Positions 4,244 through 7,479 of a stretch of 47,009 nucleotides of DNA are shown here, in pieces (position 1 is the first letter of the stretch; every line of letters begins with the position of its first letter). Made by a program: the position numbers and the translations under genes. Below the pieces are notes generated by a model, which did not search any database, was not told where the DNA came from, and saw only the letters and a program-made list of their open reading frames with translations. Origin of the DNA: Candidatus Sumerlaeales bacterium (GTDB lineage Bacteria; Sumerlaeota; Sumerlaeia; Sumerlaeales; Sumerlaeaceae); NCBI GenBank assembly GCA_038243585.1, contig JBBSQY010000024.1, positions 1 to 47,009 on the forward strand, written 5' to 3'.

Positions 4244-5338
4244 TCAGGGTTTTACATACCGGACCGCATCGGCCACAACCACGTATCCGGTGGTTGTCCA
4301 TACGGATAGCTTGGTGGCTTTGTTGCCGGCGGTGAGGCTTACATTGCCAAGGCTGTTCCACTGACCACCGCTGGACTGCTGATTCCGCGACACTGTTACG
4401 CCATTAGGCAGGATGTACGGAGCAGTTGCGGAGCGATTGCTGCCCTGGGCCCACCAGGCTGATATGGTATATGTGCCGGGGATCGTAATGTTGGCGTTCC
4501 ATGTGGCAGAGTCACTTAACGCAGCAGTGCTGCGGAAACGGTAGTTGCTGCCATATTTATCAGCGGCAGAACTTCCAGTGCTCCAGTTTGTGGAAGCCGA
4601 AAATCCTGAGCTGCTGTTGTCGACAACGATGGTTGCAGAGCCGCCGCCACCGCCACTTGTCAGGTTCTTCGTAGTCCATCCGAAGGCGTCAAAGTAGTGA
4701 TCTACAATCCACTGATAACCCATTCCACGGTTGGAGGCCCAGCGCTGGGTGCCCCACTGACACATACCACGGCCGTGGCCGTTTTGGGTGTAACCGCAGC
4801 ATACGGAATCGCTAAGGCACACGCCGTCGCCCGGAGCGTTGGAGATGTAGCAGTTGCCACAACCGTCTCTGTTTCCCGAATCATTGTTTTCCGCGCTATA
4901 CTCAGCGCGAACAATGTTGTCGTTGCCATCTACAACATACTTCCCGGCTGTAGCATCGACAGCGTTGTTCGTGCTCGTATACTGGGTCGTAGTATATTTC
5001 TGGCAACAGGTGGTGTCGCAAATGTCATAGGTTGAAGTTTTGGGATGATATACGTGCCACGCGCCATAGCTGCGAATGGCGATGGCGCCTGCTTTTAAGG
5101 ATTCTGCGTGCCAGCCAGAGATCCATTCAGCTGGCAGCACCCGTTTAACGTAGGTTTCCATGCTGACGGTGACGACGCTGCCGCAAGATGAGCAACTGCA
5201 GTTGCGTCCGACGCGAATGCTCGTAGGCGCGGGGTTCGCGGCAGAGACCTGAGCGGTAAAGGATGGGACAATACCGAGAACCATAATGCCGGCGAGAGAG
5301 ACGTTGCGCCAGGCGGATTTGAAGAAGTTGAATTTCAT
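4244..5338 (-). CDS. Exported SpoIID/LytB-domain peptidoglycan hydrolase-like protein with C-terminal golvesin/CBM-like domain
   Basis: Signal peptide; ETYVKRVLPAE..W..ESLKAGAIAIRSY, DICDTTCCQ.Y, GHGRGMCQWG; Gly linker then IVVDN...GGQWNSLG...VVADAV. Confidence 0.85.
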   Translation of the reverse strand: MKFNFFKSAWRNVSLAGIMVLGIVPSFTAQVSAANPAPTSIRVGRNCSCSSCGSVVTVSMETYVKRVLPAEWISGWHAESLKAGAIAIRSYGAWHVYHPKTSTYDICDTTCCQKYTTTQYTSTNNAVDATAGKYVVDGNDNIVRAEYSAENNDSGNRDGCGNCYISNAPGDGVCLSDSVCCGYTQNGHGRGMCQWGTQRWASNRGMGYQWIVDHYFDAFGWTTKNLTSGGGGGSATIVVDNSSSGFSASTNWSTGSSAADKYGSNYRFRSTAALSDSATWNANITIPGTYTISAWWAQGSNRSATAPYILPNGVTVSRNQQSSGGQWNSLGNVSLTAGNKATKLSVWTTTGYVVVADAVRYVKP

Positions 5339-6340
5339 GTGCGAGAACAATTCCTTTCATTTCGGCCATTTCTTAAATCCGGATCCGCCTGGTTTCGGCG
5401 GCCGACTACTTAAGATATGCCCGAGCGAAATTTCCGTGAACTGCCGCAGGCCTCCGTTCGCGTTGAGCAAACGGTTTCGATAGGTCTCGATAGCCTGGCA
5501 TTCCGGATCCAACATCTCGTTAAAGTGTTAGTGTTATTCGTTCGCCTTGCGTTGTCCAGTCAGAAGTCTGGCGAATTTTCAACCAGTGTGATCTGCGGAT
5601 CAAAAAGAAGTTTAGTTGAGTAACCTCCTGCAATGTCATTGCGCTGCGGGCCATGCAAGTAAGCAAAGAGGGCGCTCACCGGCATTATAGCCCCGCGGTA
5701 CGATCTCCATTTCTCCTAACCGAATTCTCGATTCAAAACCCATAGTTCGAGTAAGAGGATTAACCGATAGCTCAACTGTCAGGATTGTCAAACCAAATGA
5801 GTTAAAATCGTAATAAGGGGGCTCAACTCAGCAAAATGCGCGAAGGACTAGGACTTCGAGTTTCCGGCTTTAGCCGGATCCCTCTTTGCACCCTCATTTA
5901 TGAGGGGTGTTGCTGATTTGTAAAGGATTATAGCGCGCTTCAGCGTGGCTTGTTACCGCTTCAGCGCCAGTCGCGGCAACAGTAGATGTACTTTATAACC
6001 AGCCGCTCATTCAAAACTGAAAAATTCCCTTATTGAAATGCACGGAACTGCGTTGCAATCGTAATGAAGGTGCGCAATTACTGAAATGGATGGCGCCAAT
6101 GCAAACCATTACAGATGATTAAAGAACAGGTGCTGATTCTTCGGCCGGAATTTGAAACGTCTTTGGAATGCATGCGGCCCTCCGTCTTTATCGTGTCCGG
6201 AGCGCCCCTGCAGCCGATTTAAAATAGATATCGTTTTCTCTTGAAATCCGAAAGACGTCTATGGTGAGTTGTGTTAAATGCCTGCGGTTCCGGAGGCTTA
6301 ACTACCTTGGAAAAGGCGTTGCAGGCCATTTGGAAAATTT

Positions 6341-6370
6341 TTGCATAAATTTTTCAGGTGCCCCTATAAG
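6341..6370 (+). promoter_or_regulatory. Putative sigma70 promoter for the small RNA or ilvE leader
   Basis: TTGCAT-N18-TATAAG. Confidence 0.45.
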
Positions 6371-6376
6371 GTCAAA

Positions 6377-6510
6377 TTGAAGCACAAGTTTACGGTCCGC
6401 CGTCCTTCGGGGTGGTAAGCCGGGGGGTATCACCTCCTCCCCCCTCCCGGCCTCAGGTCCAAGGCCCGCGTCGGCTCCCCCCCTGCCGCCGGCGCGGGCG
6501 TCCTTTTTCT
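6377..6510 (+). ncRNA. Putative structured small RNA or leader with C-rich anti-SD loops
   Basis: cUUCGg hairpin (6400-6415); hairpin 6419-6451 with loop ATCACCTCCTCCCC; hairpin 6464-6499 with C-rich loop followed by TCCTTTTT. Confidence 0.55.
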
Positions 6511-6597
6511 ACGGGACCCTTCCGATTTCCCCTGCGAATTCTTTTGCTACACCTCGCATAGAACAAGGCACAAATTTCTGGCCGAGGAGATGGTGGC

Positions 6598-7479
6598 ATG
6601 ACGCAGGAGCAAAAGGTTTGGATAGACGGAACCCTTTACAATAAAGAGGATGCCAAGATCAGCGTTTTTGATCATTGCGTGCTTTATGGAGACGGAGTCT
6701 TCGAGGGAATCCGGATTTACGCCGGCTGCATCTTTCGTCTTCGGCAGCATCTTGAGCGCCTGTGGTCGTCTGCTCGTTATCTGTGCCTGCAAATTCCGAT
6801 GAGCGTCGAAGAAATGACGGAAGCCATAAAGGAAACCATCCGCGCCAATAACCTCACGGATGGTTACATCCGCCTGGTCGTTACCCGCGGAACCGGTGAT
6901 CTCGGCCTCGACCCACGCCTGTGTCCAAAAGCGACGGTCTTTATCATTGCCGCCAATATTAAATTGTATCCGGAATCCGACTACGTAAACGGCCTGGAAA
7001 TTATCACGGTTCCGTCCAATCGCATGAACCTCGCAGCTTTTAACCCGCGGGTGAAAAGCTGCAATTACCTGAACAACATTATGGCCAAGATGGAAGGCCA
7101 GCTCGCCAACGTGCGCGAAGCTCTGATGCTGAACCAGGACGGTTATGTCGTGGAATGTACAGGCGATAACGTTTTTCTGGTAAAAGATGGCGTGCTGTAT
7201 ACGCCGCCTATCTACCTGGGGCCATTAAAGGGAATTACTCGCGACGCCATTATTGATATCGCCCAGGCGGACGGCATCTTTGTTAAAGAAGAGCCGTTTA
7301 CTCGCTTTGAAGTGTATGACTGCGATGAGATGTTTTTGACCGGTACCGCGGCGGAGGCTATTCCTGTGGTCAAAGTGGATGGCCGCACTATCGGCGATGG
7401 CTCCCCGGGCACTATGACGAAGGCGCTGATCGAGAAGTTCCGGGAAATCGTATGCACCGACGGGGTTATGGTCGATTAG
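6598..7479 (+). CDS. ilvE: Branched-chain amino acid aminotransferase (PLP class IV)
   Basis: YGDGVFEGIR.Y, HLERL, YIRLVVTRG.GDLGLDP, KSCNYLNNI, GITR, FLTGTAAE; SD GAGGAG. Confidence 0.93.
   Translation: MTQEQKVWIDGTLYNKEDAKISVFDHCVLYGDGVFEGIRIYAGCIFRLRQHLERLWSSARYLCLQIPMSVEEMTEAIKETIRANNLTDGYIRLVVTRGTGDLGLDPRLCPKATVFIIAANIKLYPESDYVNGLEIITVPSNRMNLAAFNPRVKSCNYLNNIMAKMEGQLANVREALMLNQDGYVVECTGDNVFLVKDGVLYTPPIYLGPLKGITRDAIIDIAQADGIFVKEEPFTRFEVYDCDEMFLTGTAAEAIPVVKVDGRTIGDGSPGTMTKALIEKFREIVCTDGVMVD

Follow-up and report, generated by a model that had tools for sequence, protein, structure and literature searches.

In the RoxS/RsaE small RNAs (sRNAs), C-rich unpaired regions, one of them located in the terminator loop, target ribosome-binding sites. 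Sites of the same kind are targeted by the C-rich loops of Staphylococcus aureus RNAIII (PMC4615179), and the 6C RNA binds multiple mRNAs via C-rich loops, without a chaperone in the account given in PMC6486639. The cuckoo family of Alphaproteobacteria, as presented in PMC4615179, consists of RNAs with two to four adjacent hairpins, each with CCUCCUCCC in its loop and without a multiloop, and is often multicopy; the presence of CCUCCUCCC in every cuckoo hairpin loop is also reported in PMC10746234, where the alpha-r14 member NfeR1 is described as silencing ntrB by covering the ribosome site with CCUCCUCCC motifs, using an 8-base seed. Here we analyze a predicted sRNA that displays an anti-Shine-Dalgarno sequence in a hairpin loop and is encoded in contig 24 (JBBSQY010000024.1) of a metagenome-assembled genome (MAG) of Candidatus Sumerlaeota (G000; 3.43 Mb, 99 contigs, 89.7% complete). 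The stretch analyzed, hereafter the window, comprises positions 1 to 47,009 of this contig. The RNA, about 125–135 nucleotides (nt) long, maps to 6377–6509 on the + strand, upstream of ilvE, the gene for branched-chain amino acid aminotransferase. It is very probably a real structured RNA gene and, judging by its likeness to the RNAs listed above, probably acts in trans by masking ribosome-binding sites.

Structure and conservation of the RNA

The unit is intergenic in G000. The three hairpins proposed in an initial annotation of this DNA were all read directly in the sequence of 6300–6620, and a single-sequence fold agrees with them. Hairpin 1 (6399–6416; seven pairs, recognized in the sequence and by covariation) is capped by the UUCG tetraloop (6406–6409) that had been noted before. 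Hairpin 2 combines a stem (6419–6427/6443–6451) with a 15-base loop, UAUCACCUCCUCCCC (6428–6442), that contains the putative anti-Shine-Dalgarno seed. Hairpin 3, found by folding and by a terminator scan, is a 12-bp GC stem (6464–6475/6488–6499) with the loop UCCCCCCCUGCC (6476–6487) and is followed by a U-tract (6504–6508); the seven consecutive C of this loop and the U-tract are both present where they had been annotated. Hairpins 1 and 2 are surrounded by a closing stem, P1, identified with RNAalifold, in which GGUCC (6394–6398) pairs with GGUCC (6456–6460). The four-helix fold that includes P1 is the minimum-energy structure of the homolog in L059, one of two metagenome contigs, along with L061, that contain the full RNA. 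Together with its closing bases, loop 2 reads CCUCCUCCCCCC, and loop 3 is a second C-rich loop, the two each having a run of at least six C. The inner part of hairpin 3 was called terminator-like by a consensus scanner, and the U-tract follows the terminator in all four complete sequences; hairpin 3 with the U-tract is a predicted intrinsic terminator, with the 3′ end of the RNA in the U-tract.

When the unit was searched with BLAST against 60 relatives, genuine matches were confined to G001 and G002, the other two species of the genus (88–89% identity); seven other genomes yielded nothing but GC-rich matches of 19–38 bases. Covariance models built on three (R1) and five (R2) sequences recover the RNA at full length in G002, L059 and L061, and a copy in G001 that is cut by a contig end inside hairpin 3. 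Both wider searches returned the genus only: R1 on 13 genomes of the order (E up to 0.01) and R2 on 75 genomes of the phylum, where all three genus members scored 91–152 bits and the next best match 20.9 bits. A 20-base word from the loop has exact matches in five genome records and in 12 contigs from metagenomes. With R1, the full RNA is recovered in two of these genome records, both genus MAGs, and in two of the contigs, L059 and L061; the remaining loci were set aside as chance or unrelated occurrences, with no model match in three genome records and eight contigs and only a short partial one in two more contigs. Three additional variants, with 6 to 18 differences each, came from contigs of three of the four other sequencing runs. 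The RNA is single-copy by all measures used: BLAST of the unit against G000 gave only GC-rich matches of 14–26 bases, none of the 52 candidates from a scan of G000 for C-rich hairpin loops resembled the unit, and each genus member has one covariance-model match.

Pairwise identity, averaged over the four full-length sequences, is 0.88 across 6390–6500 (loop 2, 0.93; loop 3, 0.88); it is lower in the flanks, with 0.31 at 6353–6389, 0.45 before 6341 and 0.43 past 6500. The C-rich loops are nearly invariant among the related genomes; the five aligned sequences do not differ in CACCUCCUCCCCCCUCCCGG or in most of stem P3, and the other stems vary. In the 5-sequence genus alignment (A5), 96.7% of the cells are paired, and five of the 33 pairs change on both sides, a number reached by 2 of 500 shuffles; when the partners were slid by one to three columns, 38–52% of the cells were paired, with zero or one two-sided change. 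Such covariation among relatives, a check suggested in the initial annotation, is most pronounced in hairpin 1, where four of the seven pairs are changed on both sides over the five sequences and 100% of the cells are paired. In L061, the same place is occupied by another stem and loop, CGCG-UUUA-CGCG. Hairpin 3, also with 100% of the cells paired, shows one compensatory swap, from C-G to G-C, in L061. Two changes in P1 come from the contig variants: 6397 C>U is compensated by 6457 G>A, and a pair with U6458 replaces a U-U mismatch through 6396 U>A; in hairpin 2 of one contig, 6425 G>U is accompanied by 6445 U>G, so that the pair is kept. The RNA can be assigned to the + strand because the G-U pairs retained in most sequences (alignment columns 20–82, 23–40, 26–37 and 97–114) would read as A-C mismatches in the reverse complement. 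Loop 3 has a 1-base indel and hairpin 1 a 2-base gap, both of which argue against a protein-coding frame.

Upstream of the RNA lies an A/T-rich block, GAAAATTTTTGCATAAATT (6330–6352, +), which contains the −35-like hexamer TTGCAT (6341–6346); 18 bases past this hexamer comes the candidate −10-like hexamer TATAAG (6365–6370). The letters of the promoter proposed in the initial annotation are therefore in place, and its −35-like part is conserved: the block is recognizable in four of the five sequences (TTGCAT in two, TAGCAT in one and TCGCAT in one; L061 differs) in the alignment used for this region (A4), and the mean identity over 6341–6352 is 0.64, versus 0.31 farther downstream. The sequence GCAYAAATTT is found in this block as GCATAAATTT (6343–6352) and again, as GCACAAATTT (6568–6577), just before the ilvE ribosome site; the ilvE leader of a relative (run X4, with a loose end before 6595) also has GCATAAATTTT. 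As a regulon signal, GCAYAAATTT was rejected, its 24 genomic sites being near chance, and a shared regulator site at these motifs is a weak possibility.

The anti-Shine-Dalgarno loop and known RNA families

The 16S rRNA gene is not assembled in G000, so the 3′ tail was read from the same-genus G002 and the same-family G007, where the 16S rRNA ends in GGAUCACCUCCUUUC. Given this same-genus end, AUCACCUCCU in loop 2 is a true 10-base copy of the 16S tail of the lineage, which bears out the earlier proposal that the loop matches the 16S 3′ end. The 10-base identity is present in G000 and in the three contig variants with the G000-type loop; the loop starts with UUCC, not UAUC, in four of the five aligned sequences, so that only the eight bases CACCUCCU of the 16S match are conserved. 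The 10-mer occurs five times in G000, which is about chance, and CCTCCTCCC is not enriched there (12 forward and 5 reverse occurrences versus 4 and 11 for the backwards control). As far as can be judged from the sequences, it is through conservation and covariation, not motif count, that the feature rises above chance. The lineage does use Shine-Dalgarno sites: GGAG precedes 15.4% of 2563 crude starts of open reading frames (ORFs), versus 4.6% of 5000 random places.

A search of the whole window against Rfam 15 at gathering thresholds gave no matches, in agreement with the earlier suggestion that the RNA is unannotated. In E-value mode (6100–6700, E up to 10), five matches were obtained, among which only ar7 (RF02342; 22.7 bits, cut-off 60, E 0.023) and ar14 (RF02344; 16.8 bits, cut-off 58.8, E 0.82) align over the full length, and neither 6C (RF01066) nor RoxS/RsaE (RF01820) was matched. 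Like the cuckoo RNAs (NfeR1 and CcsR1-4; RF02344 and RF02342), which are about 120–145 nt long, the Sumerlaeota RNA has three GC-rich hairpins, the last one being the terminator, and displays CCUCCUCCC in an open loop (loop 2, 6433–6441). However, only one of its three loops carries CCUCCUCCC, loop 1 being UUCG and loop 3 UCCCCCCCUGCC, whereas all cuckoo loops do; the conserved and covarying P1 would, as predicted, enclose hairpins 1 and 2 in a multiloop, which the cuckoo model excludes; and the RNA is single-copy, belongs to Sumerlaeota and scores far under the gathering cut-offs. The resemblance is most likely convergent. With the 6C RNA of Actinobacteria, the similarity is one of design only, in that each of the two RNAs has a C-run of at least six bases in two hairpin loops; the phylum and the architecture differ, there is no RF01066 match, and the loop described here has the full CCUCC anti-Shine-Dalgarno core. 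RoxS/RsaE of Bacillota and S. aureus RNAIII are similar in their C-rich unpaired regions, which include the terminator loop, but RoxS/RsaE is unrelated in sequence and lineage and produced no Rfam match. Thus, the comparison with cuckoo/CcsR and 6C RNAs drawn in the initial annotation is apt as a statement of how the RNA might work, whereas membership fails on score, loop rule, taxon and copy number. Its most fitting classification is as a new family, restricted to the genus, among the C-rich-loop anti-Shine-Dalgarno sRNAs.

In three genomes from other genera of the same family (G005, G007 and G008), we observed hairpin units of different sequence, at L045:1501–1596 (+), L047:1501–1624 (−) and L046:1501–1600 (−), in which two or three loops have C-runs or CCUCCCCCUCC, the terminator loop being among them. 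The terminator stem and loop of the G007 unit resemble hairpin 3. These units score only about 18–21 bits with R1 and R2 and are not claimed as members; they may be distant or analogous C-rich-loop sRNAs. Other weak R1 and R2 matches in the order and the phylum look like coding DNA or chance and were discarded.

Function and competing explanations

By analogy with the described C-rich-loop RNAs, we consider it likely, with a probability of about 0.6, that the unit is a stand-alone trans-acting sRNA that masks ribosome-binding sites, and probably one that dampens translation of several genes rather than a dedicated ilvE switch. In such a mechanism, transcription would start a few bases past a promoter whose conserved part is GAAAATTTTTGCATAAATT and would end at the hairpin-3 terminator. 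P1 encloses the UUCG hairpin and hairpin 2, with the terminator hairpin next; the invariant loop CACCUCCUCCCC presents a copy of the anti-Shine-Dalgarno end of 16S rRNA, lengthened by a C-run, and the terminator loop exposes a second C-run. The open C-rich loops might then pair in trans with the G-rich ribosome-binding sites of several mRNAs, keeping the 30S off and lowering translation, as in NfeR1, 6C and RoxS. Hfq-dependent sRNAs usually end in a U-tailed terminator. Help from Hfq is conceivable here, given the U-tailed terminator and the presence of hfq in all five relatives tested, both same-genus genomes included. With respect to the trans-acting, site-blocking sRNA put forward in the initial annotation, the existence of the gene is upheld by the covarying + strand structure, the invariant loops, the terminator and the shifting neighborhoods, whereas blocking in trans is proposed by analogy.

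Several results weigh against this reading. No conserved mRNA target was found when complementarity was checked for ilvE and two other candidates, a check that is weak evidence in itself, and ilvE ranks 174th among the 2598 ORFs in a crude duplex scan of G000. A geometry filter was passed by 25 G000 candidates, seven of which have Pfam names (PP-loop ATPase, SOUL, TauE exporter, ribosomal proteins L10 and S6, DAO-Rieske oxidoreductase and ABC ATPase) with no common theme. The gene for the PP-loop ATPase, which has the best-placed long complement in G000, AAGGAGGAGGUG, was rejected as a candidate, its site being lost in the orthologs from G002 and G001, and the TauE exporter likewise, its site not being kept in G002; SOUL orthologs were not found with the query used. 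Perfect 9–10-base complements at ribosome-site distance are nearly absent in G000: the sole convincing one precedes the PP-loop gene, and two others, located before ORFs of 121 and 142 amino acids (aa), are probably spurious. If the RNA acts on mRNAs, it would have to use short seeds, in the manner of the 8 bases of NfeR1. Hfq was not found in G000, which is no evidence of absence in a genome that is 89.7% complete. In the putative promoter, TATAAG is not kept in the relatives in A4, and the consensus scanner made no promoter call, since its rule requires the second hexamer to end in T and TATAAG does not; with the promoter only predicted, so is the 5′ end of the RNA. None of the sequencing runs listed for the stretch is an RNA run. 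The covariation comes from the five aligned sequences and the three contig variants, all from one genus, and with these eight close variants, the support is good, not overwhelming. Finally, the near-total invariance of a loop and stem of about 20 bases could fit a protein or ribosome ligand equally well.

This last point leads to an alternative in which the structured RNA has another job, its loop binding a protein or the ribosome, for example as a decoy or sponge for a factor that recognizes the 16S 3′ end or as a sponge for a poly(C)-binding protein. We regard this as unlikely, though as the most probable of the alternatives. It would account for the identity of CACCUCCUCCCCCCUCCCGG and most of stem P3 in a molecule whose other stems vary, for the failure of a conserved mRNA target to emerge, and for the 10-base match to the 16S tail in G000 and the three contig variants. 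However, no partner is known, the first bases (AU) of the 16S match are unconserved in four of the five sequences, and invariant seed loops are typical also of sRNAs with many targets, as exemplified by the ultraconserved CCUCCUCCC of alpha-r14 in the description given in PMC10746234. Much less probable is a cis leader of ilvE (6598–7479, +; Pfam Aminotran_4, NCBIfam NF006185 and TIGR01122 above cut-offs), a gene that is not part of the RNA. In this arrangement, ilvE would be transcribed from the promoter of the unit, with hairpin 3 as a regulated attenuator, and loop 2 would fold onto the ribosome-binding site in read-through transcripts. The two elements share a strand, ilvE starting 88 bases past the terminator, and the order of a divergent SpoIID-like gene, the RNA and ilvE is the same in G000 and L059. 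In G000, exactly as the initial annotation had it, 11 of the 12 loop bases at 6428–6439 can pair with GAGGAGAUGGUG (6584–6595), two of them in G-U pairs; the duplex energy is −15.3 kcal/mol. Yet ilvE is downstream in only two of the four homologs for which the downstream side is known, because G002 and L061 carry other genes there: a convergent ORF of 445 aa without a Pfam family in G002, where ilvE lies in a separate contig with 1035 upstream bases devoid of the RNA, and a convergent pilin-like gene in L061. The pairing is not kept either: with the respective ilvE sites of L059 and G002, loop 2 forms the 5-bp AGGAG core alone (−7.5 kcal/mol). The caution, voiced along with the original proposal, that any strong Shine-Dalgarno sequence would pair partly with such a loop was right, and the G000 match amounts to ordinary Shine-Dalgarno pairing plus local coincidence. 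The ilvE loci of G000 and G002 resemble each other from 6535 onward, past the terminator, over a stretch that includes the 5′ region of the gene (6535–6597, +) with the Shine-Dalgarno sequence GAGGAG (6584–6589); together with CGAATTCTTT...GCATA, which is common to the ilvE leaders of G000, L059 and G002, this indicates that ilvE has its own control region that travels with it. When the RNA and the ilvE leader were folded together, the minimum-energy folds left loop 2 open in G000 and L059 and no anti-terminator appeared, in folds that are unable to represent loop-to-tail pairing. Gene order and leader comparison show here, at the level of sequence, that the unit is independent of ilvE, and the suggested cis switch is accordingly disfavored.

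Still less weight goes to the notion that the RNA is a copy of the 16S 3′ tail on a stable scaffold, which, rather than adjusting a few mRNAs, would compete generally for Shine-Dalgarno sequences or would lure away a factor or toxin that recognizes the 16S 3′ end. It is entertained because the loop and stem are near-invariant, there is no specific conserved target, and the match to 16S rRNA spans 8–10 bases; if true, translation initiation would be subject to a global brake or shield specific to this genus. The least probable explanation is that there is no functional RNA at all, and that the sequence represents a conserved terminator rich in GC, a DNA element of repeat-like character or a fold that arose by chance between genes. 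Indeed, the fold energy is ordinary for GC-rich sequence, which folds well regardless (z = −1.67; equalled by 11 of 200 shuffles), the promoter is weak by consensus, and neither the 10-mer nor CCTCCTCCC is enriched in the genome. However, a single-copy element is not a repeat, and a terminator of an upstream gene is hard to reconcile with the lack of any gene end just upstream in G000, where ORF-bearing DNA is first met at a distance of about 1 kb, in divergent orientation. Moreover, the unit is conserved far above its flanks and changes neighborhood together with the upstream block, and the compensatory changes and strand-specific G-U pairs likewise speak for an RNA.

Genomic surroundings and significance

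The divergent upstream neighbor of the RNA (4244–5350, −) encodes a SpoIID/LytB-domain protein with a Golvesin_C domain, as identified with Pfam and NCBIfam models. Its ortholog is located divergently beside the sRNA in G002 and L059 as well, and in G001, a DEAD-box helicase gene is upstream of the RNA. In G000, the SpoIID-like gene and the sRNA are separated by about 1 kb (5357–6340) in which ORFs do not exceed about 75 aa in any of the frames. This region has no similarity to the shorter gap (about 550 bases) of G002 and L059, and in a compact genome, non-coding DNA of such length is unusual; an Rfam search of this ORF-free gap (5300–6400) in E-value mode (E up to 1) gave no matches. Some C-rich elements were encountered elsewhere. 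A Methanomicrobiales MAG (L053:420–500, +) and the metagenome contigs L063 and L067 have in common a long GC stem, CCCCACCCCGCCUGG/CCGGGCGGGGCGGGG, with a loop of about 23 bases containing CACCUCCUCCCCCCUC, which may be an archaeal anti-Shine-Dalgarno hairpin unrelated to the Sumerlaeota RNA. In contig C6 of G000, outside the window, near 91250 (+), there are three C-runs of 7–9 bases about 20 bases apart in A/T-rich sequence with AAAACCCCCCCUUU repeated. In G039, from another Sumerlaeota family (L079:691–783, −), a C-rich single strand, CCUCCCCCUCCCCCUUCCCCCCUCC, leads into a perfect hairpin of about 30 bp.

A search for literature on Sumerlaeota together with small RNA found none; given this and the absence of an Rfam 15 family, the RNA would be a first regulatory RNA candidate for a phylum known from metagenomes only. 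The covariance model R2 can be used to annotate it in new Sumerlaeota genomes. The case of ilvE also carries a warning, namely that complementarity to a neighboring gene in a single genome should not be taken as a regulatory link. With this RNA, the shared design, in which an anti-Shine-Dalgarno sequence is presented on a stable GC scaffold, is extended to one more independent lineage, which supports the view of C-rich-loop sRNAs as a general, repeatedly invented throttle on translation in bacteria with strong ribosome-binding sites.

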